A DNA stretch of 64,000 nt from Moniliella sp. 'wahieum' (GCA_003971905.1 RSEE01000029.1:372001-436000), one strand, 5' to 3'. Shown: positions 13,276-56,376, numbered from the stretch's first letter. Notes: generated from the letters alone by a model not told the origin. A program made the numbers and translations.

Positions 13276-13834
13276 TCGTGGGAGCGGTTGGGCAGAACGC
13301 CAACGCCAACGCCAACGCCTGTCACATGTCGCAGCGCGTCAGCGCGTCAGCCGTCATCGCGTCGTCATGCAGTCGTTTGTCGTCCGTGCTTAACTATAGG
13401 CGGTCGTATCGCGCATCGCGCATATATCGTTCCGTGTATTTGTACCTACACTTGCGCTTCCCATCGGGTTGTGAGATGCTACTACCTTGTCTTATTTTGC
13501 TCTATCCATCCATCCACATCCATTTTCCTCTTCCATCCATCCACAACCATTTATCTATCGATCTATACTATCTATCTCTATCTCTATCTCTATCTTCTGT
13601 CGATCTTATCTCGCCACACTTGTTTATCTCTCTTCCAAACAGCTCGAGGTACCCGCGGTACTGCACTGGGAGAAACGATGGGAATACGATGGAAAGGGTT
13701 CATCGCGTGGCGCACACCAGGGGTATCGAAGGTGTTTTTTTGCGTGCTGCGGCAGAGAATTGATGAGGCCGAGGGGGGCTGAGTACAGTGGGTATCGATT
13801 TACCCCACAATGTTTGGACTGACCTAAGGCCTAA

Positions 13835-13862
13835 TGAAGCTTGAAGCTTGAAGCTTGAAGCT
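13835..13862. repeat. (TGAAGCT)4 heptamer array
   Basis: Read directly from the sequence. Confidence 0.95.
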
Positions 13863-14003
13863 CCTTGCTAGAAGTTAGACCCGGACGTTGAACCCTCAGT
13901 TGAGGATGTTGAGGTGTTACATGTTAGGTCTGAGGTTATTAGGCGAGGGTGATTTATGGTTGGGTGTTACATGTTACATTGATCTTGGGCATTGTCACCT
14001 GTC

Positions 14004-14442
14004 ATGCAAGTCACCGGCACCACCATCCACCCTCTCCCGTCTCCCGCTCTGGCCCAGGCCCAGGCCGCAGCTGCGCCTCAGACCGCATCGGCGAAAAAGA
14101 AGACGGATACGGATGTACGCACAGAGATTGCAGCTATCATAAGGCAGATCACAGCGAGCTGTACATTCCTTCCTTTACTCGACGGAACCCCCCCGCTTGG
14201 TGTGTTTGGTAGTCGTGGAGAAATTGTACTGACCCCCGCTCGTAGGCTCGTTCCAGATCCAAGCTTACACCAATTCCGACGCGCCCGGTCCAGAGGAATG
14301 GGCCATTTCGGCGCCTCAGTTGATCAACGCCAACCGTGCAGAGCAGGTACGTCTCCCACCGTTCTCCACTGCGGTGCACAAAGTCGATGCCATGGCCGCC
14401 TACCGCCGGGATGAAGGGGAAGACGAATGCCAGAGACGGTGA
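14004..14442 (+). CDS. MAD2: Mad2-like HORMA protein, C-terminal half only (about 130 aa after splicing)
   Basis: KTDTDVRTEIAAIIRQITASCTFLPLLD, then intron 14200-14245 (gtgtgt..actgac..cgtag), then SFQIQAYTNSDAPGPEEW..AEQVRLPTFSTAVHKVDAMAAYR. The N-terminal Mad2 motifs are not seen upstream. Confidence 0.8.
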
Positions 14443-14532
14443 CACGCTCGCTACGAATCCATACGCTTTCTCCCATTGTACCCATGAACCCATGAACCCA
14501 TGACGCATGCATGAGGCATGCAAGTGAATTTT

Positions 14533-15894: not shown

Positions 15895-16114
15895 GGTAGC
15901 GCGCACTGGAAGAAATTAAGCCAGCTCGCCTCGGAAGACCAGCCGGGCGGAAGAGGGGCGGAACGGGGTAAAGCAGGCGAAGGGCAAGGGCATGGGCGCT
16001 GGCCGCCCCACTGCCCCCGTGCCCTTGGTGCCCTGTTCCCAATTTGGGAGCACTTGCGTGGGGGAGCACGGAGCACAAGGGCTGGTCCCGAGAATGCTTA
16101 AAGCACGCTGTGAC

Positions 16115-16148
16115 TACTGGTTACTGGTTACTGGTTACTGGTTACTGG
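16115..16148. repeat. (TACTGGT)n heptamer array, about 5 units
   Basis: tactggttactggttactggttactggttactgg. Confidence 0.9.
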
Positions 16149-16279
16149 GTACCACCGCCGCTGCCACCGCCACTGCCATCGCCTAGAATGACCGCTGTTG
16201 CTTCTCGCCCGCGTCCAGCACAGTGCGCCTCACGCTTGTGTTCGTCTCCGGGTCATCACTCACTTGCCCTTCCTACATG

Positions 16280-17130
16280 ACATTGCGAGGATGATGACGT
16301 TACGATTCCAGGAGCGCGACGAAATGGTGGTGTCAAGATCACTATTTTTCTCCACTGGTTTCTGACAGAGTGTGCACTGCACCCTTGTCCATTCTCAAGT
16401 TCCTTCTGCAGCCACGGCCCCCGGCAAGCCTAAGCGTCCCACAAGGTTGGTAAAGAGCACGGATGATCCTCCGCTGGCTTAAGAGGGTGGGTACAACACC
16501 ACCACGGTCGCCGAGAACACACCACATATGTTTCATGCTGGTTGGTGCCGCCAAGGCAGAGCCCGAGCCATCTGTCGAAGATGCAATGCGGAATCAGTTG
16601 CAAGGCAAGAAGACCCAGTCAGTGCTGCTACTGCCGCGGGGACCACTTCACCACCCGCTGTCCGTACAAGGATACACTTGTTTCCGCTGTGGGGGAAGGA
16701 CTGGACCACGGACCAGAAAATCCGGAATCCGGCACTTAATGACCCCTCTAACGCCACTGTGGGTGCCAGTGCGGCTGCACGCACCGAGTGCTACGTTCTT
16801 CCCGGCCAGCAGGAAGGAGCTGCGTCACACTTTAGTCCTGCCTCGATGGGTGGCGGGTCGCGCGACGAGCAGCCAATGTTGTATGTGACCAAGCTTTCAG
16901 AAGAGGTGCAGGAGGGGGACTTGCGGCAACTCTTTGGTCGCTTTGGTCAGGTGACCCGGGTGTTCGTCGGGCGGGATCAGGAGACGGTACGGGACAAAGG
17001 GTTCGCGTTTGTATCGTTTGAGATGGTTGCCGATGCGGACCAGGCACGGCAGAAGGTGGCTCAGTTGGGTATGCCAACCTCATGATTCTTTCGGTTCAGT
17101 GGTCCCAGCTGCGCGGGGAGCAACCAACAC
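16280..17130 (+). pseudogene. TIF35: Translation initiation factor eIF3 subunit g, degenerate copy
   Basis: Zn-knuckle CCYCRGDHFTTRCPYKDTL (from 16623) and RRM MLYVTKLSEE..LFGRFGQVTRVFVGRDQET..KGFAFVSF..ILSVQWS. The 5' half is broken by stops and frameshifts and conserved residues are substituted. Identity is confident; pseudogene status less so. Confidence 0.7.
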
Positions 17131-17214
17131 TGAGTACTGAGTACTGACTGCCTAACTTGTTGTTTTATCTCGTTGGTGACTTCTTGCCTAGCGCCACGGA
17201 CGTGAAAAGTACAA

Positions 17215-18523
<1,309 letters not shown>

Positions 18524-18787
18524 TAGGAGGTGCGGGTGGTGGGGCAAAGCCACGAGCAAGTAGAGATTCAAATTTAAGTCCTTGCTCGGCGTTGGACGTT
18601 GGTCGGGCCGCGCAAATCCGCGCAAATAGCTTTTTTGAAAATAAGTTTGTGCTCTATGCTTGCAAAAACTCTCCCGAAACCCCACTTTGTGGTGGCGTCT
18701 GCACCACCTGCTGCTACCCACGCTCGAGTTAACAATGCTTGCGGGCCGCTCATGATCAACATGCCTATGAAACGGGCGGGAATCCAT

Positions 18788-19429
18788 TTAGTCCAGGGCC
18801 ATGGAAGCATGCTGATCCATGCTCACCCCAGCTTTCCCCTCTTTCTGAGCCGGGACAGCAGCCATACCTTCCTCTTCTTGTGTTGGATCGCGGGCCTGGA
18901 GTAAGATGCTCAACTCTTCGGGATCGAGGGCAAACTCGTCGTCACTTTCCACCCACATGATATCAGGTGGAGGTTCCTCCGCATCCTCCACCATCTCCAT
19001 GTCAATATGTCGATCAGGGTCGAGGGCATACGTTTGCGCTGCGGCCGCTTCCCCCTGTTGTGTGACAAGGGCTTCTGCGTGCCAAATGGTATGGGCAAAC
19101 TCGAGGTCTTCAGCCATGTCGGCTTCGTCTTGTAGGTCTCCTGAAGGTGGAGGCCGAGGTCGTGGAATAGAAGGAGGATGGCGCAGTTTCGGTGCAGTGG
19201 GGCGGGAAGGTGGTTTAGGGTGGGTGGCACGTCGAACAGAGGGGGTACAGTCACTGGTGCTGGTGCTGGTGCTGGTGCTGGTGCTGGGATGGGGACTGGC
19301 TCCGCAAGTGGGGACCGCCGTCTCTCGGGCAGAGGCGACGGCTTGGCGGCGGGCACTGAGCATAGCCTGTTCGTGGGCGGCAATGCGTGCATGGTGGGCT
19401 GCTGCCGAGGCGGCGGTGCCGCCTGTCAT
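18788..19429 (-). CDS. Hypothetical protein
   Basis: Open frame from MTGGTAASAAAHH with an (ST)n tract and an acidic C-terminal region (EDLEFAHTIW..LDPEELSILL). No family recognised. Confidence 0.5.
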   Translation of the reverse strand: MTGGTAASAAAHHARIAAHEQAMLSARRQAVASARETAVPTCGASPHPSTSTSTSTSTSDCTPSVRRATHPKPPSRPTAPKLRHPPSIPRPRPPPSGDLQDEADMAEDLEFAHTIWHAEALVTQQGEAAAAQTYALDPDRHIDMEMVEDAEEPPPDIMWVESDDEFALDPEELSILLQARDPTQEEEGMAAVPAQKEGKAGVSMDQHASMALD

Positions 19430-20205
19430 CTGGGAGGGGGACACAGTGGGCGCGTGATGATGCAGATAGAGGGATGCCGATGGTCGGTGGAGCCGAGGGC
19501 GTCTTGCGAGGGCAACAGCCAAGCCGGGGTTATTCATACCTTCGTCCACGCATCGCCACACGCCTTGCCACATGTCACGCACGCGCTAAGACTAGCCAAT
19601 GCACAGTGCACCAGTGCTGCAACATTTCAGCACAGCGACAGCTGTCAATGTCATGGTCAATCGGACATAGGAACTGGGAGCCATCGAATTTGCTGACCCG
19701 CGCCAGCCCCCCCTCCCTTTCTGCTTCTATGCACTTCCACCATCATCATCAGCCCCGCTCCCCTTCCAGTCCAGAGGCATTGTACACGCCTGTAGCCCAT
19801 TGAGCATAGGGTGGAGCACCCACCCTTGGGAAGCCAAAACATCCACACCTCGACGCACCAAATGCGGGGTCAGACGTCGCCCCCGAGGTAATTGCCTCTT
19901 TCGTCTCCAGGCTGGCCAATGCCCAGATGCAGAACTTCATCCTCAACTGAGTCGAAGGATATAGTTACTGAGTCTTAGTTCTTGATGATTGGCGATGTCC
20001 TAGCCTCCCCACGGCACCATAGCGGGAACAGACTAATAGAAACTGGACGCGCCGCTCTCGCGGCTTCTTGACGACACGGGTCTCGTGTCTGGCGAGTAGC
20101 CCTGGGCGGCATGCGTTATAGATTGAGCAAAGAGAGGATGGATGGGGAGAGAATGCAGTAAAGATAGATGACTAAACAGTACAAATAGGATCTGGATCAT
20201 ATCAA

Positions 20206-22218
20206 CTAAGCCCGTGCTTGCTGTAAGGCTTGCTGCCGAGCCTGCTGCCAAGCCTGTGCCTGGTCCATCTCCTGCGGCTGGAGCTGTGCGACAGCTTGTT
20301 GGATGGCGATGTTGTGCTTGAGCAGGCTAGCGAGCGCAAGGATCGCGTGCTCCCGCATGTAGGGATTGGCCTCGTCCACCTGGGTCAAGTTAAGCACAGT
20401 GTACAGACCACCCGCTTGGTGCACACGGTCTTGCACTTGCTTCACTCTCTCCCGTTCTTCAGTCGACGCGCGGGGGGAGAGGAAAACAAGTCCGGTCAGA
20501 AGGCGGAGCAGATCTCGTTTCAGGTACGGAAGGTCGGTCTTGCCTTCCATATGGGCGGTGCGACCGGTATGGCTCAAGGCGTGTCCCTCTGGAACTGAGT
20601 CCATTTTGCCCCCCTTGAAGGGAGAAAGCGGCGGGGAAAACTTGACGACCGCTTGGAGGAGGGATACCAAATTTTCCATTCCCTCCTCTGAGAAGCGATG
20701 AACGAACCATTGTCCCACTTTGAGCATCTCTGTTCCAGTGGAGGTGACCTCTCCTTGCTGGGCAGGATAGATGAATGCACAGAGAATCTGCAGAAGCACA
20801 ACCAAAGCTTGGTGCAGTGCTACGATCTCGCTTTTGGCTTCAGGACCCTCAGGGCAAGCGAGAAGCGTCTCCATTTTCCACTGAGAGAGACCCAGATGGC
20901 CCACAGAGGGGGCGTCTCCCTCATTGTCAGAGGTAGACTCGTATCTATCCGCCCCGCGTCGAGGTAGGCATCGAAGAACTTGAGTAGCGCCACGAGCTCA
21001 GTCGAGAGACCAGTTCCTAACCAGGATACGATCGATCCCAGCAAGCCGCGTTGAAATAGCGGTTTGAGCACGGCATGGTCCAGTTGCAGCAGATCTCCCC
21101 CTTCTGCTGGTGCGGCTTCCTCGGGATTTTCTTCGGATGAGAGGAGCTGTTCAAGCGTTCGATGTGCGCTATGCAACAGAATCCGCAAAACAGGGTGGGC
21201 TGGGGGAGCGGACGCGAGGAAGTTCGCGCGTAGTGTTGCACCGGGTGTGGTGGGAAGCACACAATTGAGAAGAAGGACTCGGACCGCAGAGGCTATTTTG
21301 GCGTCGTTCATCTCCATTAGACGTTGAAGGAAGGTGGGTCCTACTGAGGAAGAGTGGGAATAGACCATAGCCCAGAACTTGGTCTGTGCCCCTTCGCAGC
21401 GGGTAGTGCAGTTGGCCAAGATTTGCACAAATGTACGTGCCAGAGGGACATCGTCCTCGCTTTCCACGATTGCACCCGATGTGAGGCGTAGAAGCACGCT
21501 TTGGTCCATCACGGACAAGAGGGTGAGGACTCGCGTTTGTACCCGTTCCCCACCAGCAGCGAGCATGTTTCGCACAAACCGAAGCGCCGAAAGTGAGATT
21601 ATCCTTGTTTCAGGACTGGGAAGAGTGAAATAGACTGAGGTCAAGTGGAAGAGATGCAGTAGGCGGTGCATGTCCCCTTTGGCCTTGACCATTTGGCTGG
21701 CAAGGACGCGCAGGCGGTGGTCCTGCGCCATCTCATCCACAAGTCGGGGAAGCAGCATCGCCAGCTGAGGCTGTGGTGAATGGGACCAGTCACCATCGAG
21801 GATACGAGCAAGCTGGGCCATGTCCTCGGTTTCCGCCATGCTCATTTCGCGCAGTGAGAGCGAGGTGGTGGCCTGCCAAGAGGAGGTCGATGTATGCGAG
21901 GGGGTGGGCAAGGGCCAGGTCGTCCAGGACGTCATACTCATGAGCCAGAGCCTGGGCGTGAACCAGCCGCTGGCGCCGATCTGGTATCGAAGCGTACCCA
22001 GTGAGCTGAAACTGGTTGGCGTGCAGACCTAGGGGGTCGTCGAGGCGGATGGTGTAGGGCCCCGCGTAGACACCAGCATCACAGGTTGCGTCGCGAACCC
22101 AGGCAGGCGGCTGGTAGGCGTCCGAGGAAACAAGAGAAAGTTGGTCGAGGGCATGGGGAAGAGCTTCGGCCAGCGAATAGTACAGTGCTGGCCCCACCGC
22201 TTGGGACGAGGCGACCAT
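20206..22218 (-). CDS. Ataxin-10/Ctr86-like ARM-repeat protein
   Basis: C-terminal ataxin-10 signature VQDRVHQAGGLYTVLNLTQVDEANPYMREHAILALASLLKHN. Frameshift near 20880. The start is either 21839 or, with one more frameshift, 22218. Confidence 0.8.
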
Positions 22219-22670
22219 GGCAACTGCTTCTGTTCACCAGTAAGAGGTGGAGCCAAGTAAAAAAAAAAACAGTGGCAATTAGGGCGGCCCGGAGCTAAGA
22301 GGGCTACCCCCGGCATTCCGCCGACAGGCTGGCTGTCTCCATTCCGCCCACACTTGGGCCTGCGACCAGCATTATACACGGTGGTCCCCACGGTAGCGTT
22401 CATGCCCAGGATGGAAATGGGCGGATAGATGGAGCAAAGTCCAGCTGGCGACGCCAATGACGTGAACGGAAGGGGGGTTGAGGCCCCGTGGAGGAGCAAG
22501 CATGACTTTGTATCTATTCTCGCCGCGTACAGATCGTACAGCAGTCTTAGAACGAAAGCACTATACATGTTACTCTGTTATAGTCCACCTCCCCCTTCAG
22601 ACCAACCTGTTGAGACCAGCAGTCTTCGAGTCGTCCGTTTCAAAAACAAAAAATCCGTTACTAGAGCAAG

Positions 22671-25434
22671 TTACCCCTGGGTAGAGTAGCGTACTGGGCG
22701 AGAAGCCACTGGCGAAGCAGGTCGCGGTACTCCTGAGGATGAATGGGTCAAGTGGTGTCCGACTCCCCCTTGAACCCCCCTCGCTGCAGCCCAAGGGTTC
22801 CCGCCCCTCGGGGAGTGAGGGCAGGATGATGTTCCATTCCCCATCGGTTCTTGGTGCGCGTATCGTCTCCACCCGTAAGAATGGGACAGAGGTTTGACCA
22901 CTTTCAGCTGACCCCACTGAGGCTGCTCTGGGTTGACCTGGTAGTCCATCCGACACAGTTTCTTGGGTCCAGACATGCCTTCTTCTTCGATCGCAGGGCG
23001 CGAGAGCGTCTGCTCCCCTCGCATGAGCGCAAACTTCTTATTGACCAAGGCCAAGTACCAGAACATGAGGTTGGTGATCGTCACTTGTTCGCTCAAGGGT
23101 CGACGCGGATCCGCTAGTTTGTAGTGGCTCAGTCGATAAATCGCCCGCTCCATGTTGACAGGGAAGCGTTGAATCTTGGCCTTCTTTTTGGAGGGATGCA
23201 GAGGCGCAAGCGATTCCTTCTTCTTCCCAAACAGCGCACCAAGCTTTTTAGTTCCTTTGCTCAACTCTTCATCTCGCTTCCCAAACCAGGCAGTAAAGCT
23301 TCGCTTGTCCTTGTCCTTTTCTTTTTCCTTTTCATGTCCCCGGGGGGGAGGGGACGAGGCTGAAGTTGCATGGGCGACTGCGTTGGAGAGTGCACACCTT
23401 GCCCCGGTGGGTGCGGAGCTTGAGCACGCTGAACCGAGGCTTTCGGCGTGGGTGCTTGCTGAACTGGGTGCTGAGCTGGAGGATACCCCACAGCGTGAAC
23501 CGAAGCATATGTTCCGGGAGCACTCGTCCATTGTTGGGGTGGTGGGGGAGCACCTCGACCTTGGCCAGGGGCGGGGGGCTGAGCGCGAATGGGTGCGGAC
23601 GGTTGTGTCTGGGGGAGAGGCGGGCGGGACTGCTGAGACTGTACGCGGGTAGCTACAGGGTGGCCTTGGGGTGTTTGGTGGGCTGAAGGGGAAGGTAAAG
23701 ACTGTAACCTCGATGTTCCCGGCGAACTTGGCCTCGCTGTCCCCGGAGCGCCGGGAGGCGACGTCTGCAATGGCGAGGTTGGCGCTGGCTGTGCGCGTAT
23801 GCCTCCAAAGGACGCGCGGTACCTTGGAGGACAGGGCCGGGCGCGGATCCTCTCACGGCATGGGGACCAGCGACGGGTAAGGAGCGCACTGAAGTGGTGG
23901 GAGAAGTTGGCTGACCACCCGGGGGGCGAGGGGATTGATTGTAAGCCTGACCCGCTGAAAAGGGGCAGGGGGCGGGTTCGAGAGAGCAGTACTAGCTCCT
24001 CCGTCCCTAGGCATGGATACGATAGGCAGGCCCTGCCGCTGAGCCTTGTGCATCTGGGTCAGATAGGCCGGTGGCAGTTCTGGCTGTGCAACGCTATGTC
24101 TTGGTTGGGGTCCACTTTCCAGTGCAGAAATGAGACGTTCGCGCGCCGTCGTTTCTGCATTGGATGCGGTTGAATTGAGAGCAGTTGAGCTGAAAGGACG
24201 GGAGGGCGAATGGACGGGACTGGGCGATGGGTTAGCATATGCCTCAATGATCATCCCGTACGATTGAGTGGCCGAAGCCGAAGTAGTCCCCCCGCCAGTT
24301 CATCCATGTCCAGATCGGCATAGGCAGCGTCTGTATCCGCTGGAGAAGTAACAGGTGGGCGGACAGAGGTCTCTTTCGTCAAAGAAGTGAGTTGCTCTCG
24401 GAGGGAGGGATCGCGCCGGCAGAAGAGAAAGATCCCGCTTGGGGGGGAAGAGGATCGCGACGCAACGGAGGCTCGCTTGCGCTTGTTGAAGAAGCATGTT
24501 CCCCGCCGAGAGATGGGAGGGGTGGCACCTCTTCCGTGGATCTGGTCGACCCATACCTTTACCTTCTCGCTGTCGTTGGCGCAAAGAGCCCGAGCGACGT
24601 ATATCCCTCACCTCGATCGCTTCTGGCATTGCATCGACGACGTCCATGGCTGTGCAGTCCAACGTTAGTGCCATTTGCCGAACAAAGGAAAACAAGACAC
24701 ACCTGCATTTCCACGCATGCTCAACGTGCGACCCAGCGCAGCCTTGAGGGCATCGGGGTCATCCCACTCTGGACCAAAGGAATCGTCCATTTCCGCCAAG
24801 GTAGGCCGACGAACCGGAGTCACTCGGTCCTCTACACCTTGGGGAGAGAAGGACTGCCCAATCGGGGGCTCGGGATCGTCACTCGGAGTGACTTGTTTCC
24901 GAAGCGTGGAGCGACGATTCAGGGGTCCCATTACAGGTGAAGGCTGCTGGTGTTGATGAGCACGGCGAATGCTGCGTGCTCTGACGCCTCCCAACCCAGA
25001 TAGAGCAGGGTGCAGCTCTTCCTCCTTGGGTTGGGGGGGAATGTGGCATTTCCGGCGGCTCCCGCTACTTCAGGTGCATCGAGGCGGGCACCCACCCTGA
25101 TGCAGCCCTGGGGGGACGAGGCTTGCTGCCCTCATCCGACGCCGAGCTGCGCGGCTCTCCTCGGTATAATTGATTGTCGATGGAGGCGCAGGGGGAGGCA
25201 CGGGGGCTGGGGCTGGGGCTGGGGTTGGAGCTGGGGATAGGTGCAGGAAAGCCGGGGTACCAGTGGCAGAGGTAGGGGTAGGAGCAGGGGAGGGGGGCAT
25301 ATCCAGGGGCAATGTGAACGTGGAGGGCAGCGGCGGTGGTTGATGATGTTTGTGGCGCGGGGGCGAAGGAGGGTACAAGCCGGGTCGGTCCGAGACGGCA
25401 CCAGGGGACGGCGTGGGGCCGAAGGAGGCGCCAT
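22671..25434 (-). CDS. ZDS1: Zds1-family PP2A regulator
   Basis: Zds_C motif RFPVNMERAIYRLSHYKLADPRRPLSEQVTITNLMFWYLALVN (~23040-23170), preceded by a long Pro/Ser-rich region. Probable intron ~24652-24703. Start uncertain; frameshifts. Confidence 0.8.
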
Positions 25435-38064: not shown

Positions 38065-40757
38065 TTATTTCGGCCGTTTGATTGGGTTGGGCAACCACTG
38101 ACCATTGGGTGCGGGTGCAAAGCCATGGGCAGGTACCTCCTTCATGGTGAGAGTGTAGGAACCCTGGAGGTTTTGCGCTTCCACCCGGTTGCCCCACCAA
38201 AGGTGTTCACCATTAAACGCATTGTCGACCGCGAGGCGGCGCGTGGTGGGTACCTCGAGACACAATGAAATGAGGAAGGACATGATGGCCGAGCCACAGT
38301 CAAACCCGGCAGAGAGAATGTAGTTGTAGTCGCTCCAAAATTCAAAGTAGTGGTGGCGGAGGTAGTACTGGAAGAACCAGCGACCAGGAACCAGGAGGTA
38401 AAGTTGATGCCCGTCGCAGGAGGCATCATACCCGTCGCCGAGAAGAAGACGGGCCAGTTGATGAGGCGCACCCACGAGTTGGGGTACTTTTTGGCCAGAT
38501 ACCACGTCGGGATGGGAATCACAGCACCAATGATGAACATGATGTTTAGTGCACCGTACGTCTGGCCAATTGCAAACGTCTTAGCGGGCCCGATGAGCCC
38601 CCAGATAATGCTCGCTAAAGAGACAGAAAGCATCCAAGTGATCATAGAAGGTCAGATAATTAAGGAAGAGAAAGCACGGTAGAAGGAAACGTACCAGAGT
38701 AGAAGGTGTGTTGATACTGGCACGTAAAGTGAGCCGGGCTGATCTTTTCGGCGGGATTGACACCACAGAGGTTGTGGGTCGATCCAAAGAGGAAGGCAGT
38801 GACACCAACTTGCACCAGGCAGGCCCAGATGGTGGAAATCATCTGAGCCCAGAACAGTCGCGGGGGGGATCTTCATATAGTGACCCAGCTTTAGGTCCGA
38901 TACAAAGGTAACAGCTTGGGCCATGGAAATGTAGCCAAACGTCTTGAAATCATCATGGCCACCGGCTTGCCCGGAATGGCGTAACCAACAATCATCTCGC
39001 TAATCACGTTGAGACCCGGCTCGTTGGCAGTCACAGCAACGATGATACCGATCGGGATGGTGTAGAGAGCGCTCATGAGGATGGCAATGATGAACAGCCA
39101 AATGGGCAACTGGGTCTTGTAGCAGTAAATTGCAGGGACAGCCATCGCAAAGGAGGCCAAGAAGGTCACCAAGTACCACAGTAAGGAACTTCCTTGTACC
39201 CGACATGAGACGAGCGTGAATGTCAGGTCCTCATGAAGAGACCTTTGATGCTGACAATCTGAGGCGCGTAGTAGAAGGCGACATGCGTCAGCGTCGATGT
39301 GATGGCCCCAAACCCAACGCAGTAGCTAATGATGAATGTCTGCCCTCACACCGTGTCAGTATACTGAAATCAAATCTAGGCAAGCAACAAGAAGGGGACA
39401 TACGGCACTGAGGTACTCCTTGGAATAAGTCTCGTAGGCAGCTTCGTTCAGCACATAATCTTTCGTCACCACATGGCTCACCGAGTAGGGCTTGCCAAAA
39501 CGGTCAAAGATGCCCGAGTCGGAGAAAGTGAGGTAACCCGTGTACTTGGTATTGGTGGCCCACATGATGGGCGCCACAAACGCAATGATGACAAAGTAAC
39601 CCACCATCGTATTGGCAATGGCAAACCAAGGGACAAAGATGGGCGAACCAAGTCCACTCGTAACCTGCAGCCAATCGAGAGTGATCAGGTTGAAACCAAT
39701 GCCGCCCGACCCACCAAAGACAAGGTTGACACCTTTGTTCTTGGGAGCTGCCCAGGCGGGCCAAAAGACAGAGAGACCCGTAAAGAGATACGACGGAACC
39801 ACTTCCCACAAAAACATGAGGAACGACGCCACGGAAAACATCTTGAATCGAGACCAGCCACGGAAACAGCCGACCTTCTTGTTATCGTGCATCGATGTGA
39901 GGAACGCTGTGCTGGTCAAATTGCTTGGCCAAATCATCGAGGCAGGCCATACCAGCACCTGGCGACAGAAGCCAGCATAAGAAAATCCAATGAGCTGGGT
40001 CGAGAGAGTAAGAAGAATCATGTACCCGCAGTGATGTGCTGACCGTAGTACGCGTGCTGCGTGATGAGATGTCTGTGGAGTATGCCGAGCCTACGCCAAC
40101 CGTGGCCATCACAGTGATCAGCGTGTGTTCCTTGATGTTAAACGGACCGGGGTTGACCCAGTCGGCCAAGGGCCAATGGCGGGGGTAGGGAATCTTGGAC
40201 ATGGCCACACCAATGGGGTAGGCAAACAGTTGCACTGCAATAGATGGGAATCGAACCATAGGCCACTATTATCACAGAGCGAAAAGAAACAATGAGTAAG
40301 TTAGCCCGAGACGTCCCCTCTTCTGCGAGCACAAACAACATCACGGAGAACAAATGCAACGTACCTGAGCAGAGAAGTACATGTTGATACCACTGAGCAC
40401 TGTGCAGGAAACCATGCCCATGAGCCAGGTGCGCAACGTGTTGGCCCTCATGGTTGGGTCGTCAATGTTGCTGACGGCGGCACGCACTTCGGGGTAGATG
40501 GAATCGTCCCCGATCACATCCTCAAGACGCAGCTCTGCCTTCTGGTCGCCCTTGCGAAGCGCACGATCTGCTTCTTGCAGAAGTTCGGGGTCAAGGTTAG
40601 GATCGTTGATGCGGCCATTGGTGATCTCATGACGAATGTCGTTCTCAATGCCACCGAAATAGGACGCTTCGTGGTCGAGTGTAGGCGGTTTGGGGGTTCT
40701 CAGCGTTCTCAACCGGCTCCTTGGTCACTACCTCCTTCCGGTAGGGCTGATGTCCAT
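38065..40757 (-). CDS. OPT-family oligopeptide/glutathione transporter
   Basis: [66 protein letters not shown]. Introns 40266-40364, ~39341-39402 and ~38637-38694. Frameshifts. Confidence 0.93.
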
Positions 40758-43964: not shown

Positions 43965-45957
43965 ATGCCTGCTGCCAACCAGACGCCGTCCTCTCCGCCG
44001 GCTGGTCCAACTACCGCCTCAACCACCAGCCCAAGCCCCGCCCCAGCCGCCCGTCTGGGGCAAGCGTGCACGTAGGTTCCCCTCGCCCTGTCCTGTGCCC
44101 GTCTTCTCCAGCTGCATCCTGACCACGTCTCACGCAGTCAACCAGACCCAGTGCCTCCTTGCCGAGGGCTACCTCGCCCCCGCCGCCGGCGCTCTCGTTG
44201 ATACCTCTGTCAAGACCACCATTTCTTGGGACACTACCTGCTTCAAGAACAGCGGCGGCACGCTGACATGTACCTGTATGCCCTCAACAAGTCGTCCCTC
44301 CTTCTCCCTATCCATGGATGGCGCTCCATCCCCCCGACAAGGGCTCTACCTCGGTTAAGCTCGCTCCCTCGTGGTGGATTGATGACCCGCATACCTCCCA
44401 GAACCAGAGCTTGTACATCAACATTGTCACCTCGGGCAACCAGCCGTGGGACACGGCCACCCAACCGGCCCCACCTGGACCGCGATGTACGTCGCCCTAG
44501 CAAGGTCACAACCCCCCAAGGACGCCTTATCTGATCCGTCGATGAGCGACAAGGTCATCTCCGTCTTCTACGCCTCGGGCGGCTTGACCGGTGCAGGCAA
44601 GACTGCGGCAATTGTGTGTCCGCTCATTGTGCTTGTCGTGGTTGTTTCTTTGGTCATCCGCAAACTCCACATTAATCGCAACAACAAGACGGCCGACTTT
44701 GCCGAGAAGGTGGCAAGCGCATGAGCCGTATCTCCATCGACTGGAACGCAGGTGGAGATGGTCGTCACGGTGCTGTTCCGGGTTCCCGCCCGGCTTCCTA
44801 CGTCTCGCAGTCTCGCCCGGCAGCACGTTTGGTCCAGGGATGCATGGCACTTCGTACTCGGTAGACTATGGGCTGCACAACCGTGCCGGCATCGGTGCGA
44901 GCAACGACATGGACTGGAACAATGCAGGTCAGCGCTCCTCCCAAATTTCCTTTGCTCCAGGCACGCGTGTCTCGGCATACGACCCTACCGTGCCCTCCCC
45001 CTTGGCTGGCGATCGGTCTCATCGTGCCTCCTCCTCGACGGGCGTCATTGGTTCCGGGTCCAACTTGAAACAATCGTGGTACCCCCCTGCCCCTGCTCGT
45101 CGTGGGATGGAAGACGACGACATGGAGGATCTAGACGACTTTGCCGTCATGTCGGCCGAAGAGAAAATGGGCGCTCGTCCGCTTCCTTCGCCGAGGCAAT
45201 TGAACTGGAAATCCCCGGAGGGAGTCATCCCCTGTCTGCTGCCCCTGGGCCGCATGACTCGGTCATCACTCCCTCCGAGGCGACCAACCCCTTTGATCTG
45301 GATCTGACCCCGGGCCAGTCTCCCATGCCGCCCCAACAGGAATTTGGTCTTGCCTACGCAGATACTTCCTTTTCCCACGATGCAGCGTACGATGATGGTG
45401 CTATGGTTTCCAACGGACCCATTGGCCATGCCTACACGCAATCGGAGGACCAACGCTACGGCCCCCAACCTGTTTACCTGCCAGAGGAGAGTACGACCGC
45501 AGAAACAGCGACCCACGTGATTGCCGAGCCCGAAGCGCAAGGCCAACACCCCCTTTTCGTCGCCGACGCGGCGGATGATCCTTGGTCGGCCGATATGGAT
45601 GCGCGGCCGGCTGGCCATCAGCCCAGGGCGAGCGAGGCATGGACGCCCGCTGATTTCCCCGCGGCCGAGCCAGTTGACCAAGACTTTGCCGCTTACCAAG
45701 CCGCTGCCGCCGCGGGGCTTACCGACGACCTGCCTGCCGGAGGACATGCGCGGTCCACGTCGGTGGCCCAGCGAGAAGTGGGGAACACCCATGCTCGTAC
45801 TGCCTCTGCAGGCCCGCGCACACTGGTAGGAGCTGCTCGGCCTCAGTCGGGCGTTTCGGGCCAATCGGTTGGAACGTCGTTGGTGTCGAATGAAGATCAA
45901 GTGGTAGGCTACACTGAGCCAGGTGGCTACCCCGATGCATATGATCACCACGCCTGA
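43965..45957 (+). CDS. Hypothetical single-pass membrane protein
   Basis: Intron 44072-44137. Cys/Trp-containing N-terminal region, then TM segment TAAIVCPLIVLVVVVSLVI followed by RK, then a long acidic disordered tail ending YDHHA*. Frameshifts. Confidence 0.65.
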
Positions 45958-46959
45958 TCGTCATCATGCATCATGGTCATGGCCATCTATCACACTCTTT
46001 TTCGGTTCACGCGTTCACGGTCCACCTTTTGGATTCCTTTCTTGACTTGGTCGTATCACTCTCTTTCTCGGATCCGCCCCCAACTTCCTTTTGACCCGCA
46101 CCTTTTAACCTATGCCCTGCGGGATGACGTCGTCTTCCCCAGACATGGGTCTCCAGCCCCGGAGGCTGTCAATATGATCCTACGTTCCCTTTGCCGCGAG
46201 GTTTCCCACCGCTTCTCCTTTCGTTTTTTTTCGCTTTGATTTTGGCTCCTACTTGTCTGCTTGGTTATTATCCTTGCCATCTTTTTACCATGCCTCTTGC
46301 TTGCGTCGTGAAGACCTCTCTTAGTTCAACGTCCATGCGTCGTATAATGAAACCCGAAGCTCAGGCTCCCCTGCTCTTATTGGAATGCAGCGCTCATACA
46401 TCACGTGGAGCGGATGGGGAGGAACATGATGATGGGGATGGGGATGGGGATGATGATGGGGATGATGATAGGGAGACACCAGCTAGACGCGTGCTGCACC
46501 AACCAAGCTGAGCCTGCCTGGCAGAATAACCCACTGGTACAGGTACTGATGATCGGTGATCGATGATCTCACCTCACACACTTTTGAAATGCGCAGTTCA
46601 GTTCACGCCGCCGATCATCGATCATTGATTAATTGATCAATTGAAAATTGAACTGTTGAGTGATGAGCTCATCTATCTGATGTGGAGCTAACGTCGCCCA
46701 AGCCTGGTCTGTGCACACGTGCTCTATAGAGCCCGCCCAGCCCGCCCAGCCCACCCGTTTTGGATGGGGATCAAGCTTCAAGTCGATCAAGATGGACAGC
46801 ACAGAACCAGATGTCGGCGCTTCAGCCGAGTCAACCCACCAGTACCACAACGCCCCGAAAAGGACATAACTAGACAGCCATTCGTTCATTTCACACATTC
46901 CATTCATAAGCGTCACGCCGAGAGAAGGAGGACTTTGACGAAGAGGTGCTTTGGGAAAG

Positions 46960-47746
46960 CTACTCCTCCTCGGACGCCTCGGCCGCTGCATCGATCGCGT
47001 CATTGTGAATAAGGCACTTCTGAGTGGCCTTGAACGCATCCAGGCAATCCTCGCCCTTGGGCTCGGTCTCGGACGTGGCGAAGCACGAGAAGGCCGTCTT
47101 GAAGCTCTCGGCGCACGGGCCACTGAGCTTAGGTGCCAACAAAGGGCTTTCCCAGTTGACTTCGCCTGCTTCGAAGGCCAACGGCGTCTCGTCTCCCGTA
47201 AGAATGTCGGCCACCTCGGCCACAAGCACAGTGACGTCCACGTCTTCCTCTCCCTCATCTGCATCTGACCAGAAAAGGGGTTAGCGGTGCGTCAAGAGAA
47301 AAAAAAGAGAGTGGCCAGGCTTACCTTCCGGGGTTACAGTAGCTGACTGGACGACGATAACTTGCTCAGGAATCAGGCCAAGTCGGGTGTGCCAAGCAGC
47401 GCGGGTAGGCTTGGTGAACGACGGAGGGGGCTCCTCAGTCTCAGGAGCCGGAGTCTCCTTGGGCTTGCCAATACGGTCGTGCCATGCCCCGCGCTTCTCC
47501 GGCACCGTACCGCCCTGTGCTTCGACCGCGTAGTGACCCAGACGTTCACCATAGCTCCCGCGACTTTCGAGGTACAGCTGATCGGGCCGAGAGGCGAGGT
47601 AGGCCACCCCCCAGGGTGGCCAGGGCGGTGGCGACGCGTCGGCCCATCACGGGGGCCGGGGCAGCAGGCGCAGCGGCACGTGTGGAGGCGAAGCGCACAC
47701 CGGCTGTGAGAGCAGACCGAGCAGAGGAAGAGGCACGAACGAACAT
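46960..47746 (-). CDS. MIA40: Mia40/CHCHD4-like twin CX9C protein lacking the CPC motif
   Basis: Presequence-like MFVRASSSARSALTAGVRFAST and a short hydrophobic anchor; intron 47265-47324; core GEVNWESPLLAPKLSGPCAESFKTAFSCFATSETEPKGEDCLDAFKATQKC. Confidence 0.82.
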
Positions 47747-49013: not shown

Positions 49014-51162
49014 ATGGCATCCGGGTCCGCAGCTGCACCCGCTCGGACCCAGGCCGGCGCGAGCGATCTCGATGCGTTCCGTGCCGAGTGGGCCGCCGAT
49101 ATCCGCCAGCAGCGCCATGCCTTCCAGCTCCACGACACGCCCTGGACGTCGGGGGAAGCACCGGCGGCAGATGCCCACGCTGCCGAGGACGGCTCCGCAT
49201 CTGACTCGGACGACGACTGGGCGTGGACGTGGACCGGAAGGACCGGGCTCGAGTCCAACGTCGCAGAGGAGGTGCTCGGCCTCTTTGGCCCCGAGTCGGT
49301 CCTGGGCACGTACGTCGACGCTGTTCTCGCTGAGCGAAGCGGCGATCTCGACACTGCCCTACGACTTTATCGCTCTGCTTTCCGTGCCGACGAGAGTGTG
49401 GACCGCACCTTTCGTCGTGCCGTCGTGGTAGCCAATGATCCTGCGGCTATGTTCCCCCTTCGCCCTCCTCACAATGGTATGCCCGACCCTCACCGCTTCT
49501 TGCGACGCCTGTCACGCAAAGTTCGCCGTGCTGCCCTACCCTCTTCGGTGGCACAGGAGGGAGGCATCCGCGCTTCAGCTCCTGTCCTTCCTCACGACGA
49601 TGCAATTTCTGCCCTTGCTCACGCAACGGATGGGATGAACCTTGATGCACCGCCCCCCGACCGGAGGCCAAGGCGACATCGTCCAAGCCGCCTGCAGATT
49701 CTCACCTTTCGCCCCCGCCTGCCATTCTTCCTTCGAATGAGCTTCCATCCAGTGATCTCACTTCCAAGTACAGAAAAGATATTGCGTTAGGGCCTCTGAG
49801 CGGGATAATGGACGAGGCTCGTGCGCTTCGGGCCCGTCTGGCTCGGGAAGCTGAGGTCGAGGCTGCACAGGGGACCACCCACCAGGCCATCGACCCAACT
49901 CGCTTGGGACCACCACTGGAGCCTGTCACAGCCACCGAAAAACTAGAGCGACTCGGAAACATGACCGCCATCCTGCCTGCAGAACGGGACGCTCCGTGCC
50001 CCCTTGCAACGCTTCCCGAGGAAGTAGTACTAGGGATCTTGACCCGCGTCCTTTCCCTTCCTCAATCCGCTGGCGTGAGACACCTTCCTTTCCAAGATCC
50101 GGCCGAGACGGATGTGGTAGAGGAAGGACTAGGCTCTCCCCCGCCGGCCCACGGAGCCAAGGGGAAACGGTCCGGCAGCAAATCCGAGAGCACTCGTCCC
50201 CTTCTCCAACCCCCCGCTGCTGCTCGCGAGCCCGAGACCGAGCAGCAAGGGTATGACGTGACGTCTCTCGAGACGTTTGCTCGGACTTGTTGGAAAGTAC
50301 GCCTTTTGTCTCTGGAACCACTTTTGTGGCGACAAGCGGTACGGCACGTGTATACTGGCCCCCAGGTAGCGCACATGGATCTGCCCGCACCCGATGCCAC
50401 TTTCCCCCCTTCCATTGAGAAGAAGGAGAAAGAGGCTCACTTGAAGGGGAAAGAGGCACGTGAGGCGGAACGTGAACGGGAGACGCTCATGCTTCGCGCC
50501 CAAGAGTGGGCAAGTATGCAAGTTCTGATTCGAACCACCTATGGACACAGTCCACGGCTTGCCTATGTGCACCAACCGCGTGTCCGCACGGGCGGGGTGT
50601 ACATTGCTTCGTGTCATTACCTACGGGATGGCCAGTCCGAGTCGTCGTCGTGGATTCGGGTGTTACAGCGGATCGAGTACTTTCGTTACTTGCGTTTTTA
50701 CCCTTCAGGCCTGGCCTTGTCTCTTCAAACTACCGATACGCCTCAGGAAAAGGTGCGCCAATTGCACCATCCGTGGATCATGCGGCAACGAGGCTCGGCG
50801 TGGGCAAATGGGCTCTCTATGCTTCGTTGAAGATGTATGATTTGATGCACCCTACTGGCGACGGCGCAGAGGGAGACGACGGACAGAGCGCGGTGCAGGA
50901 GGCTGAGAGGGAAGCTGAGTATGCCAAGTACCCGGGTCCCGTGGTGGCGGTAACGGATGTGCTGGACCCGACCATGCCCCACATGCGCTTTTTCCTTGTG
51001 CTCAGTTTACGACAGGCAACAGCACGCACCCAAGGCAAATGGAACCGGCTGGACATGGTGCGGTCTCAGTCGCTCAACTTGCGCTATGGCACGGTGGACG
51101 ACATTCCGGCCCGCCACCGCACGGCCTTTCTCTACTCGCCGGTCCGCAGTTTTTCCACGTAA
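49014..51162 (+). CDS. HRT3: F-box protein, Hrt3/FBXO9 family
   Basis: LDAFRAEWAADI, ERSGDLDTALRLYRSAFR.D..VD, F-box PLATLPEEVVLGIL, PRVRTGGVYIASCHYLR.G, IEYFRYLRFYPSG. Frameshifts. Confidence 0.88.
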
Positions 51163-51439
51163 CTCATCCTGTGTTTTTTTCGTTCAATCCCTCTTCCTTC
51201 AGAGGACTTCTTGTGATCCGGAAGGGCTACGCAGTTCAGGCTGAACCACCCCAGGTAGAACCGACCCGAGGAGAGGCAGCAGTAGGCGCCGAGAACGGGT
51301 GGCATCACGTGATGATCGATGATCGATGAGGCTCATCCCTGAGGTTACATACGCACCCCTGGGGTCCGTGCTGATACAGTCGCTCGTCCAGAGTCGCTCG
51401 CAGTCGCTCGCTCGCTCTACCACGTAGTTGCTCACCACC

Positions 51440-53882
51440 ATGTCCGACCTTTCCTGGGAGCCGACCAGTGCGAAGACCTACCCCCGTCCTGACTGGGTAC
51501 ACGACTCGACGCGCTTTGCGCTGCTCGACGGCGAGTGGACGGTGCTGTTTGATGACGAGAACCAGGGCACAGCGGCTGGCTGGGGCGCCAGCGGGCTCCC
51601 CGCCCAGGCTGGTGCGCAGGCGCAGCGCACCATCACGGTACCCTACGCCTTCCAGTCCCCAGCGTCGGGCATCAATGCTCCCCATGAGGCACATGAGTAT
51701 CTATGGTACGAACGCACTTTCTCCTTGCCCCAGGAAGTTGCCACGCAACATGTCTCCCTTCACTTTGGTGCGGTGGATTACGAGTGCTCCATTTACCTTG
51801 ATGGTCAGAAGATTGGAGAGCACAAAGGAGGTCACGTTCCCTTTTCTTTTCCTATCACCTCGTTCCTCAAGCATCAGGACCACAGCTACCGTCTGACGGT
51901 GCACGTCTGTGACTCGCCCTTCGACCTTACTCAGCCGCGAGGGAAACAGTACTGGGTTCTGGACGGTAGCGCCTCGATCTTTTACACTCCTACCAGCGGA
52001 ATTTGGCAGAGTGTATGGATGGAAGCATCGCCTCGCTCGGGAGAATCGCCAGCGCGCATTTCGGCCGCTCACACTATCCTCCGTACCGACATACTCAAGG
52101 GCGACCTGCTCGCCTGGGTTGCAGTCGAAGGCGGGGGGCAAGGCGCGGACCTTCGTGCGTCTGCAGAGGTATCTCTGGCCGGCATCCTCTTGGAACGTCC
52201 AAACAAGTCGCGGTGTCTCCTTTGAAATCGACGGAACTGCTGGCGGAGCCTCCGACGCTCACCCATTCCCTCCTTGTTTCTTCTACCGTGCAAGCCCAGT
52301 TGCCTTCGGCCTTTGTCGGAGCCCACCCTGCTTCGTCCACCACTACGAATGTGCTGAAATCGTGGCGTGATGCGCGGCTTCGGGGGGAAGACATGGTGCT
52401 GCAGCAAGCGGCCTGGTCGGACAACGGTGTGGCACTGTGGTCCCCGCTGCACCCGATTTTGTACGACGTGGTGCTCACCTGACCAATGCAGATGGTGAAG
52501 TGGAGTGGTGCGTACCACCGTTGGTGCCCGCTCGCTTGAATGGGACCCTATGCCTCTGCGCCAGGTGGGGGACAAAGAGGTACAGCCCAAGGGTGCCTTC
52601 CGCCTGAATGGCCTACCTTACTTCCACTGCCTCATGCTCGACCAGGGTTACTGGCCAGAAACCAACCTCACCCCCCCTGATGACGCAGCAGTGGGAGGGA
52701 CCAAGGGGATCAATACGGGTCTTGCGCTGAAGCGGGACATTGAGCTGGGCAAGGCGATGGGCTTTGATGGGGTGCGCAAGCACCAAAAGGTTGAGGATCC
52801 TCGGTTCCTCTACTGGGCTGATCGTCTTGGGTTTTTGGGTACGCATATTTTTTTTCTCTCTCTCTCATTCGGGTGACGAACCAAACGCTAACTTGTGCTC
52901 GAACTGCTCTCTTCTTCTTCAGTCTGGGGCGAGTTTGCCAATGCGTACCAGTGGTCGGAGGAGTACGCAGAGCGGATCGAACAAGAGTGGACGGAATCCA
53001 TGCGGCGCGACCGGAACCACGCGTCGATCGTGGCCTGGACCCCGGTCAATGAAAGTTGGGCCTACACCGATCTGGAACAACGCGATGAGCAGGGCCACCT
53101 GACTCAGCTGGCATTGCGCCAACGCCAGCATATTGGCCAATTGGTCCAGTTGACCAAGCACCTCGATCCCACCCGTCCCGTCAACGATAACTGTGGCTGG
53201 CAACATGTCGCTGGTGACTTTGCCTCCTTCCACGATTACAGCGATGGCACAATACTCTACGAGACGTGCCGCCACCTCCTCCCAGCCGAGCCAAACGGAA
53301 CGCAATCTTGGGGATCAAGGATGAAGGTCGTCGGGTGATGTTTGTACCGTCACCCGGCACGGCGCAGGCGGCCGTAGCAGGCACCACGTTTACAGGTGCA
53401 CCCTTGCCACGGGGTATGTGCCCGGCATGCCTGTCCTCAACACCGAGTGTGGCGGGATCAACATTTCGACCACCCAAGCGCAGCCCGAGGCGAAAGAAGC
53501 TCGGCCTCTGGCGGACAAGATCTCGGTATTGGAGGCGACTACAGCGGTGCCGAATGGGGGTACACGACAGCCTCCTCGGCACAAGACCTGCTTGCGCGAA
53601 TCCGACGCGTGGCTCTGGCGCTGGTAGGGGTCAAGGTGGCAGAGCGCGAGGGGGGCTTGGACTACGCGTTGTCCAAGTGTCCTGCTCAGGGAGTACGCGG
53701 GCAAGAGGCGGCTGGAGCAACCCATCTGTGTGGCATGGTGTACACCCAACTGGCCGATTGCGAACAAGAAACTAATGGCCTGCTAACCACAGCGCGAAAG
53801 CAAGTTGCCCAACGAGGCACTCCAGGCGGTCCTGGACGAGTTGCGCACGGTCTACTTCGCCAGCTTGGGGGAGTGGGTTTAA
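51440..53882 (+). CDS. Glycoside hydrolase family 2 (beta-galactosidase/glucuronidase-like)
   Basis: [59 protein letters not shown], acid/base [15 protein letters not shown], nucleophile-like [21 protein letters not shown]. Intron 52839-52922. Frameshifts. Confidence 0.9.
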
Positions 53883-54508: not shown

Positions 54509-56376
54509 ATGGCAAGAAGGACGAACTTCCTGCGCCTTTGAGTGCGCCACCCGCTGCCCCCACCAGCCGCAGCAAGCGTCTTTTGCCCTTCTTGGCACTG
54601 GGCGCGCTGGTGGTAGTGGTGCACACCCTACGGATCCCAACCTGGCTCCCGGTTCCGACACGCGATGCCCATTCGCGCGTCCAGCCCCTGGCCGAGGTTG
54701 ACTGGGATGCATATTGCCCCCAAGTCCCGGCCTATCAGCATCACCTCCCCCACCGGCGGCACTGAAGGCTCCGAGCCAAGACCAGCTCGCTCACCTGCTC
54801 GCTGGGGCATTGAAGGTGGACACGTCGGTGCAAGATGCCATGCCCCATGTGAGCGATGCACCTGAGGTGTGGGCCAAGATCTTTGATCCCTTCTTTGCGT
54901 ATCCAGTCGGCCTGGCCGCTGTTGCACGCCCCCACGTCCCCTGTCACACTGGAAAAAGTGAATGGACATGGACTGTTGTACGAGTGGAAGGGAACCGACC
55001 CAACGCTCAAACCCCTTCTGCTCATGGCCCACCAGGACGTGGTACCAGTGCTGGAAGAGACCGGCACTTGGTGGCTGCACGACCCCCTTTGGCGGGTTCT
55101 ACAACCGCACCAGTGGCTTGATCTGGGGACGTGGCGCACAGGATACCAAAGCGTCCTTGACTGGCATCTTGACCGCCGTGCAGTCGCTCCTTGAGGCTGG
55201 GTACACGCCCAAGCGCACTCTTGTCCTCAGCTTTGGCTTCGACGAGGAGCGGGGCGGGTTCGAAGGCGCAGGCCGCATTGCCCCCGTGATCGAACAACGG
55301 TATGGCAAGCATGGCGTGGCAATGGTGGTGGATGAAGGTGGTGCCTTCTCCGTCCCCGAAATCGGAAGCGGGGTGGGGTACAGCATCGCCCCCGCCACAG
55401 CAGAAAAAGGTAAACTCAACATCAAGGCTACCGTCCAGACCCAGGGGGGGCACTCGTCTGTCCCGCCGGCTCACACGGGGATCGGGTACCTGAGTCAACT
55501 CGTCGTTGCTCTTGAGGCGAGTCCGGAAGCCGCGGTGCTCGATACCACGCCCCATAATCCTTCTTGGGGTCGGCTGTTGTGTGATGTGGCGCGAGGCGCG
55601 GTACAGGGACCTCTGCGCGAGGCTCTGCGCGACGTGGTGCAACTGGAACAGAACAGAACAGGTTGGTTGCTTGTCCCATGCACGCTCAGCAGCTCGAACG
55701 CGCCAAGGCGAAAGCTGTGCAACTCATGTCGGGCTTTCAGCGTGCCGCGTTCCAGAGACCACCCAGGCTACCGATCTCGTCCGAGAGGGGTCAAGGTCAA
55801 TGCGCTGCCGGAAGAGGTGGAGGTGATTGTCAACTACCGCATTGGCACATTCTCCTCGACCAACGCTCTGCGTCGCCACTTTGCTAACACCGTGTTACCT
55901 GTAGCCAAGAAGAATGGATTGAAGCTGGATGCGTGGTCGGACGGAACGTTGAGCTACTCGCCACCCACAGCCGCAGCAGGCACCATCGTGCTCCGCGCAT
56001 TTGGGCATGGACTGGAACCTGCGCCGGTCACCCCGCTTACCGGACCGCTTTCCAAACCCTGGCAACTGCTCAGTGGTGTCATCCACTCCGTCGGGACCCA
56101 GCCACTTCGCCCGACGCAGCCGATCGGCAGGCCAAGTTGTACGTCTCGGGCGGCACCAGTTTGGGCAACACCGACACGCGTTACATCCACAACAGCTCGT
56201 CTGCGGTCTTCCGCTTCAGCCCGCGCTCTATCCACCCGCCAACGGAGGACGAGCGGGCGATCGTGGGCCGCTGGGGCGCGCACACGGTGAATGAGCATGT
56301 GCATGCTAGTACTCTGACTGCCGCCTGGACGTTCTACACGCAGCTGATCCGCGCGAGCGATGAGACGGAGCTGTAG
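54509..56376 (+). CDS. CPS1: M20 metallopeptidase, carboxypeptidase S-like
   Basis: N-terminal TM (LLPFLALGALVVVV), KPLLLMAHQDVVPV, WGRGAQDTK, SFGFDEE, VDEGG, GGHSSVPP, GNTDTRY, AHTVNEH. Frameshifts. Confidence 0.9.

Follow-up and report, generated by a model that had tools for sequence, protein, structure and literature searches.

A probably maintained Mia40 relative with Ser-Pro-Leu in place of the redox-active Cys-Pro-Cys motif in Moniliella sp. 'wahieum'

A spliced two-exon gene, located at 47746..46960 on the minus strand of a 64,000-nucleotide stretch of the Moniliella sp. 'wahieum' genome (hereafter the window), was found by reading and translating its frames to encode a relative of Mia40 in which Ser-Pro-Leu (SPL) stands at the place of the Cys-Pro-Cys (CPC) motif. 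The disulfide of CPC is the redox centre of the Mia40-Erv1 import relay. Judged from its sequence, the encoded protein looks like a maintained, redox-dead derivative of Mia40 rather than the result of a sequencing error or of plain decay. The complete reading proposed here, namely that it is an anchored receptor/holdase of the mitochondrial intermembrane space and a probable paralog of a canonical MIA40, is given an even chance of being right. On the narrower question of descent, a paralog maintained beside a canonical MIA40 is rather probable.

The gene is a nuclear gene of a GC-rich fungus and its product comprises about 241 residues (the features are collected in Table 1). The splice signals are consensus-like and the phase is kept, which supports the integrity of the gene: the frame is preserved across the intron by a split codon G|AT, giving an Asp between ...TVTPE and ADEGEE.... 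Exon 2, with a GC3 of 0.75, translates as ADEGEEDVDVTVLVAEVADILTGDETPLAFEAGEVNWESPLLAPKLSGPCAESFKTAFSCFATSETEPKGEDCLDAFKATQKCLIHNDAIDAAAEASEEE (P0002), and all residue numbers given here (C50, F54 and others) are counted along this translation; the segment 46960-47262 (-) reads ...AFEAGEVNWESPLLAPKLSGPCAESFKTAFSCFATSETEPKGEDCLDAFKATQKCLIHN... up to the stop codon.

Table 1. Features of the Mia40-like gene, in coordinates of the window
Feature	Coordinates	Strand	Basis or content
Exon 1, first part	47613..47746	-	Frame of the ATG at 47746; presequence-like N-terminus MFVRASSSARSALTAGVRFASTRAAAPAAPAPVMGRRVATALATL
G6 run, presumed point of the 1-base frame shift	47607..47612	-	Frame comparison and sequence of the run
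Exon 1, second part	47325..47606	-	Next frame; end of the hydrophobic stretch (VAYLAS), then polar linker
Intron, 60 nt, phase 1	47265..47324	-	GTAAGC 5' end, CTAAC branch-point-like site, CAG 3' end
Exon 2, including the stop TAG (46962-46960)	46960..47264	-	Acidic stretch, helix, Mia40 core domain, acidic tail
AGC CCT TTG = Ser-Pro-Leu	47140..47148	-	Stands where Mia40 has its redox centre, Cys-Pro-Cys
Twin CX9C core, C50-X9-C60 and C73-X9-C83	47014..47115	-	Includes the hydrophobic-face residues F54, F58, F61 and F77

The sole intron lies upstream of the core domain, which contains none. In 28 canonical Mia40 loci from metagenomes (L012, L030, L042, L048, L053-L059, L061-L071, L073-L077 and L079), the reading frame of the core is interrupted directly behind EPKG(M/V)(D/E), which suggests that these genes have an intron within the core, just before the third structural Cys. 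A translated search of the other 63 kb of the window returned no second copy of Mia40. One weak tBLASTn match at 45298-45432 (-), with E values from 0.38 to 9.6 and a translation devoid of CX9C, was attributed to chance.

Several lines of comparison identify the protein unambiguously, as far as sequence and predicted fold can tell, as a true Mia40 homolog by descent. Residues 24-87 align without gaps, as originally predicted, to human MIA40 (2k3j, E 1.2e-15, HMMER phmmer against PDB chains), and yeast Mia40 fusions were matched by HMMER at E values of 2.4e-15 (3a3c) and 8.6e-15. All five PDB sequence matches at E<=10 are Mia40, and the two top ones are Cys-to-Ser variants of human MIA40 that read NWNSPC (2l0y) and NWNSPS (9gqz). 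The AlphaFold model, built on an alignment of 61 sequences (mean pLDDT 73.9), has helices at residues 10-22, 43-46, 51-63 and 71-97. Foldseek placed this model closest to four structures, those of yeast Mia40 (2zxt, 3a3c) and human MIA40 (2l0y, 2k3j), with an rmsd of 1.3 A over 56 columns against 2zxt, and gave no other match below E 1. The protein thus shows both the sequence similarity and the twin CX9C helix-loop-helix fold by which membership in the Mia40 family is judged. The redox-active Cys-Pro-Cys expected of a Mia40 oxidoreductase is replaced by Ser-Pro-Leu; since this defining feature is absent, the protein is not classed as a Mia40 oxidoreductase.

The replacement of the motif is exactly that announced by the original prediction, the codons being AGC (47148-47146), CCT (47145-47143) and TTG (47142-47140). 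Both Cys columns of the motif are 100% Cys in 56 canonical sequences. The passage from TGY-CCN-TGY to AGC-CCT-TTG cannot be made with fewer than three base substitutions and involves no indel, so that the earlier description of a multi-base substitution also holds. As a consequence of the change from Cys-Pro-Cys to Ser-Pro-Leu, the protein is unable to accept or donate a disulfide. The codons of the structural cysteines are all in place (C50 at 47115-47113 and C60 at 47085-47083; C73 at 47046-47044 and C83 at 47016-47014), both CX9C motifs being intact as claimed, and the AFSCF and EPKG.DC signatures are kept.

A search for CPC-less orthologs in relatives, suggested together with the prediction, was productive. 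In a representative library of 1.84 billion proteins (HMMER), 1064 matches were obtained at E<=1e-3, 425 of them at E<=1e-10, and the 150 best were inspected. All 150 carry the Mia40 W-x-C/S-P lid and the twin CX9C pattern, and 149 carry CPC. The sole exception is the top match (P0003, 94 aa, E 1.6e-23, 64% identity), which has SPK at this place and whose sequence is NWKSPKLAVKANGPC. Its 90% cluster holds four variants derived from assemblies of public runs, all of them SPK and all open across 94 aa. The proteins with Ser-Pro followed by Leu or Lys will be referred to below as SPx. A word-index protein search with the SPx alignment, among proteins of near length, returned only P0003; the same kind of search with the 100-aa domain among longer proteins gave no scoring protein among 379 candidates. 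When metagenomes were scanned with the SPx alignment as seed, 80 loci were retained from 201 relatives; 79 of these 80 carry CPC, SPx was found in none, and one locus (L060) could not be resolved. The occurrence of the CPC-less state in both the window gene and a distant relative indicates, by comparison of their sequences, that the loss is real and old.

Maximum likelihood, applied to 154 core domains (67 columns, quick search), united the five SPx rows in a single clade (SH-aLRT 99). The stem leading to this clade measures 2.8 changes per site, whereas the median path between pairs of canonical Mia40s is 0.70; within the clade, the branch of the window protein measures 0.43 and that of P0003 1.23, the path between the two lineages amounting to 1.67 changes per site. 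With so few columns and a quick search, these branch lengths are rough; they suggest that change was rapid at first and that divergence then slowed down, in a clade represented by two lineages only. No sister group emerged for the SPx clade, its nearest canonical neighbours coming from groups as different as Tremellomycetes, Zoopagomycota and Ustilago.

Conservation, at the level of the alignments, speaks for continued selection. In the 61-sequence alignment, all 13 invariant columns, which include the four structural cysteines, are kept by the SPx rows (G33, W37, P40, P49, C50, F54, F58, C60, S64, P68, C73, F77 and C83). Among the columns fixed in the 56 canonical sequences, those lost throughout the SPx clade are C39, C41, I35 (V) and G51 (A), F61 and G70 being altered in P0003 only. 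With the two CPC columns omitted, the window protein and P0003 are identical at 30 of the 44 columns that are at least 80% conserved in the 56 canonical sequences and at 12 of the 48 others (Fisher p 5e-5). Furthermore, ten derived states are common to both lineages, each at a column with 80-100% fixation in canonical Mia40 (T32A, I35V, C39S, G43A, M45K, G51A, V62A, M80T, F84L and H87N). Such shared derived states would fit a new and stable constraint better than decay.

A stretch upstream of the core is also conserved in the five-sequence SPx alignment (T11, L13, E16, A18, I20, L21, E25, P27, L28, A29 and F30). It is predicted to form a helix and is without counterpart in the canonical consensus. 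An amphipathic helix, TVLVAEVADILT (residues 10-22 of exon 2, 47197-47235, -), is conserved in the SPK relatives. This clade-specific helix might pack on the hydrophobic cleft or occupy it.

The cleft itself is not fully preserved. The residues of the hydrophobic face L42, F54, F58, F61 and F77 are kept, F58 and F61 corresponding to F315 and F318 of the yeast protein according to a residue mapping made by manual count. At two columns of the cleft, canonical sequences have Met in 89% and 96% of cases, where both SPx lineages have K45 and T80, and F84 of the canonical cleft is Leu in the SPx clade. With Met replaced by Lys and Thr, substrate binding of the Mia40 type may be weakened or lost.

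The N-terminal half had been described as a fungal-type presequence followed by an anchor. The first part of this description agrees with the basic character of the N-terminus, the first 45 residues of which comprise 6 R/K, no D/E and 23 S/T/A. The anchor is more equivocal. The best 15-residue window of hydrophobicity, VATALATLXVAYLAS (X at the frame break), bordered by RR and SRPD, has a Kyte-Doolittle mean of 1.69 and is continuous only when the shift at the G6 run is read through; this stretch of about 15 residues would be short, modest and stop-transfer-like, and it may not span a membrane. The linker carries the pattern AWHxR[IL]G twice, in EKRGAWHDRIGKPKE and TRAAWHTRLGLIPE (47385-47510, -). 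The first of these matches EPRQAWSDRLKPKES, located just past the anchor of a Ustilago Mia40 (P0005; E 0.005, single comparison). Among the proteins scanned, the loose pattern occurs only in P0005, in its twin P0156 and, less convincingly, in P0100.

Exon 1 is interrupted in the assembled sequence, a point absent from the original prediction. The frame of the ATG, MFVRASSSARSALTAGVRFASTRAAAPAAPAPVMGRRVATALATLGG..., ends after 66 residues, with a stop at residue 67, and the remainder of the exon (VAYLASRPDQ...TVTPE) can be read in the next frame, which contains no stop from residue 34 as far as the splice site. The frame switch must lie between both stops, the obvious spot being the run of six G at 47612-47607, where one base is too many or two are too few. 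An intron in place of this frameshift was rejected: the sole GT..AG pair noticed spans about 30 nt, a length regarded as insufficient for a fungal intron. The shift is probably a homopolymer indel of the assembly, because a neighbouring gene has two such shifts, although a real frameshift is possible; the latter would mean that this copy of the gene is dead in the Moniliella genome.

This neighbouring gene, M20/carboxypeptidase S-like, lies at 54910-56373 (+). A tblastn of two M20 peptidase relatives against the window revealed two frame switches without room for an intron, so that the indel errors reported elsewhere in the window are indeed present. The first is located at 55085-55089, in a C5/T3 run within 'gaccccctttgg', and the second between 56107 and 56134. 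Both point to homopolymer indel errors in the assembly, a second broken gene being less likely. Homopolymer-type indels thus occur in the M20 gene at roughly 1 per 700 coding bases, and one such error would therefore be expected in a coding sequence of 724 nt such as that of the Mia40 relative. The best relatives of the M20 peptidase, from Violaceomyces, Tilletia and Colletotrichum, are only about 40% identical to it. Taken with the linker motif common to a Ustilago Mia40, they hint at a basidiomycete as the source, perhaps one close to the Ustilaginomycotina.

Public sequencing data cover the locus thinly. Contigs from two public DNA runs (shares 0.11 and 0.07, one study) match it over 46762-46941 and 46884-47104 at a depth of about 3, and both end short of the SPL site and of the G6 run. 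A third public run gave no contig matching the locus, and among the public sequencing runs no RNA run is listed as containing the gene. The contig from run X2 (46884-47104) differs from the assembly at 46928 and 46948, in the 3' UTR, and at a single coding position, 46974 (A>C), which turns a Ser of the acidic tail into Ala; public data therefore contain, at thin coverage, a close strain or species.

The other genes recognized in the window by Pfam in raw frames (39356-40265, -; 49646-50830, +; 51428-53338, +; and 11303-23852) include an OPT oligopeptide transporter, an F-box protein (FBO_C), a GH2 glycosidase, a Sel1-repeat protein, an RNase III-like protein, a Siw14-type tyrosine phosphatase and a Zds_C protein. 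Among these Pfam-annotated neighbours, none has an evident link with mitochondrial import.

Four other explanations have to be weighed against that of a maintained paralog. The protein might belong to another twin-CX9C family that resembles Mia40 (Cox17, Cox19, Mic19/CHCHD3 or a GCK-domain protein). Indeed, Pfam gave only sub-threshold matches, to CHCH (PF06747, 17.2 bits) and GCK (PF07802, 14 bits), with a cut-off of 27.2 for both, and the nearest clusters in the ESM Atlas, none of which is an SPx cluster, are ordinary Mia40/CHCH or GCK clusters with scores of 0.76-0.88, including some GCK-domain clusters at 0.86. However, all the PDB sequence matches and the four best fold matches are Mia40, the lid and twin CX9C pattern of Mia40 recur in every one of the 150 best library matches, and residues that are specific to Mia40 outside the cysteines have been retained (G-E-x-N-W ahead of the lid, GPC, AFSC and EPKG). 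The clustering with another family that the original prediction asked to be checked was therefore not found, and this explanation is extremely improbable. It is hardly more credible that the CPC codons were altered by an assembly or sequencing artefact and that the real gene is an ordinary MIA40. Such an artefact would have to consist of at least three substitutions in two codons, whereas the errors known from this assembly are indels; it would leave unexplained some ten more derived residues common to the independently assembled SPK relative, as well as a domain that is just 44-59% identical to the canonical Mia40s directly compared with that of the window. The indel errors of the assembly, and read-derived contigs that stop at 47104 before reaching the SPL site, are what speaks for it.

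The two remaining explanations are unlikely without being negligible. The gene could be a decaying pseudogene, i.e. a duplicated or former MIA40 that is non-functional in the organism, as the frameshift in exon 1, the loss of the catalytic motif and the fast evolution would suggest, together with the lack of any listed RNA run and the absence of the gene from the protein collections searched. This is improbable: the CPC-less state is common to a lineage 1.67 changes per site away, where the frame is open in four variants, the substitutions spare the structurally conserved columns (p 5e-5), the four structural cysteines, the splice sites and the stop are all present, and the sole defect lies in a homopolymer, in an assembly with two frame switches in a neighbouring conserved gene. 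Somewhat less probable still is that the protein is the sole Mia40 of its lineage and acts as a pure import receptor, oxidation being ensured directly by Erv1 or by an unknown oxidase in a rewired relay. The full architecture of a fungal Mia40 appears to be kept, the EKRGAWHDRIGKPKE motif is otherwise found, among the proteins scanned, only in canonical Ustilago Mia40, as in an ortholog, and no second copy lies in the window, although its 63 kb of flanking sequence are uninformative on the rest of the genome. Such a situation is feasible in principle according to accounts of a partial rescue of yeast Mia40-SPS by diamide (PMC4951193) and of suppression by Arabidopsis Erv1 (PMC5731054, PMC5679390). 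The same accounts also weigh against it, Mia40-SPS alone giving no viability in yeast (PMC4951193) and fungal and animal Erv1 being described as no longer able to oxidise substrates alone (PMC5731054). Moreover, the stem of 2.8 and the changes at fixed columns resemble those of a released duplicate more than those of an essential single-copy gene. If true, this explanation would provide a natural counterpart of the experiment combining yeast Mia40-SPS with plant Erv1, and the first known opisthokont in which import is uncoupled from the Mia40 disulfide relay.

The resemblance to fungal Mia40 (Tim40/CHCHD4) extends from the W-x-x-P lid, GPC, AFSCF, EPKG.DC, the structural cysteines and the Phe face to the apparent succession, across the G6 run, of a basic N-terminus and a hydrophobic stretch and to the linker motif common to a Ustilago Mia40. 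The differences from canonical Mia40 are the loss of both redox-active cysteines (SPL in the window protein, SPK in its relative), the lack in SPx proteins of the F-R-x-H-P-x-x-Y tail after the last Cys, the extra conserved helix upstream of the core and the very long stem branch. Plant Mia40 retains CPC, whereas in SPx proteins the motif itself is lost. According to a review, six invariant cysteines are common to all Mia40 homologs (PMC5725982). The redox role of Mia40 is presented as dispensable or absent in plants and protists (PMC5731054, PMC8557897), plants being credited with a pathway of intermembrane-space oxidation that can do without Mia40 as a redox enzyme (PMC5731054, PMC10669224). 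Arabidopsis Erv1 is reported to bring about a partial suppression of redox-inactive mia40 mutants (PMC5731054, PMC5679390). According to a commentary, fungal and animal Erv1 are no longer capable of oxidising substrates alone (PMC5731054).

A protein of Leishmania, LtaP04.0660, noted as Mia40-like, resembles the window protein in its description: a CHCH domain of the twin CX9C type without CPC is said to be accompanied by a targeting sequence and a transmembrane segment. Its homologues are reported from a few amoebozoa only and from some opisthokonts, yeast not being among them, and in this description it is not presented as a Mia40 homolog (PMC8557897). The closest counterparts by construction are the yeast Mia40-SPS protein (C296S/C298S) and the human SPS or C53S variants (3a3c, 9gqz, 2l0y), which likewise consist of a Mia40 core without the redox pair but with the positions of the structural disulfides intact. 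These are, however, laboratory mutants changed at the cysteines only, whereas the window gene is natural and has many further changes; in addition, the second redox position is Ser in Mia40-SPS and Leu or Lys in SPx proteins.

These engineered mutants have been used to separate the receptor and oxidase activities of Mia40 (PMC4951193). As described there, yeast Mia40-SPS has correctly oxidised structural disulfides, binds substrates and imports them efficiently, some of which accumulate, yet it cannot oxidise them; it gives no viability alone, the cells being partly rescued by diamide (PMC4951193). A pocket mutant, F315E/F318E, is described in the same article as inactive and as driving no import of substrate (PMC4951193). 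The original prediction proposed either a redox-dead holdase/receptor paralog or, for a sole copy, a rewired import pathway. What both proposals have in common, the homology with Mia40 and the loss of CPC, stands, and conservation speaks for continued selection, while the role of holdase or receptor is extrapolated from the behaviour of yeast Mia40-SPS.

For a maintained paralog, the following scheme may be proposed. The apparently kept architecture, i.e. an N-terminal presequence, a short hydrophobic stretch, a polar linker and a C-terminal core with two CX9C disulfides, would direct the protein to the inner membrane, on the side of the intermembrane space. Its two structural disulfides would be inserted by a redox-active Mia40/Erv1 pair, assumed to be encoded by the same genome, and its remaining hydrophobic face (L42, F54, F58, F61 and F77) would bind incoming or unassembled intermembrane-space proteins non-covalently. 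The protein would then have kept the 'trans-site receptor' activity of Mia40 and given up its oxidase activity. M45K, M80T and F84L, together with the lost C-terminal HP..Y motif, suggest a narrowed or changed range of clients and no docking of Erv1.

A full-text literature search, which included few subscription journals, returned no description of a natural CPC-less Mia40 in fungi or animals. A natural and conserved protein of this kind would mean that the receptor/holdase half of Mia40 is selectable on its own, and the SPx protein would serve as a natural tool for the study of oxidation-independent binding. Next to a canonical copy, it would be a new accessory factor in the biogenesis of the intermembrane space; as the only copy, it would point to a fungus whose disulfide relay has been rewired.
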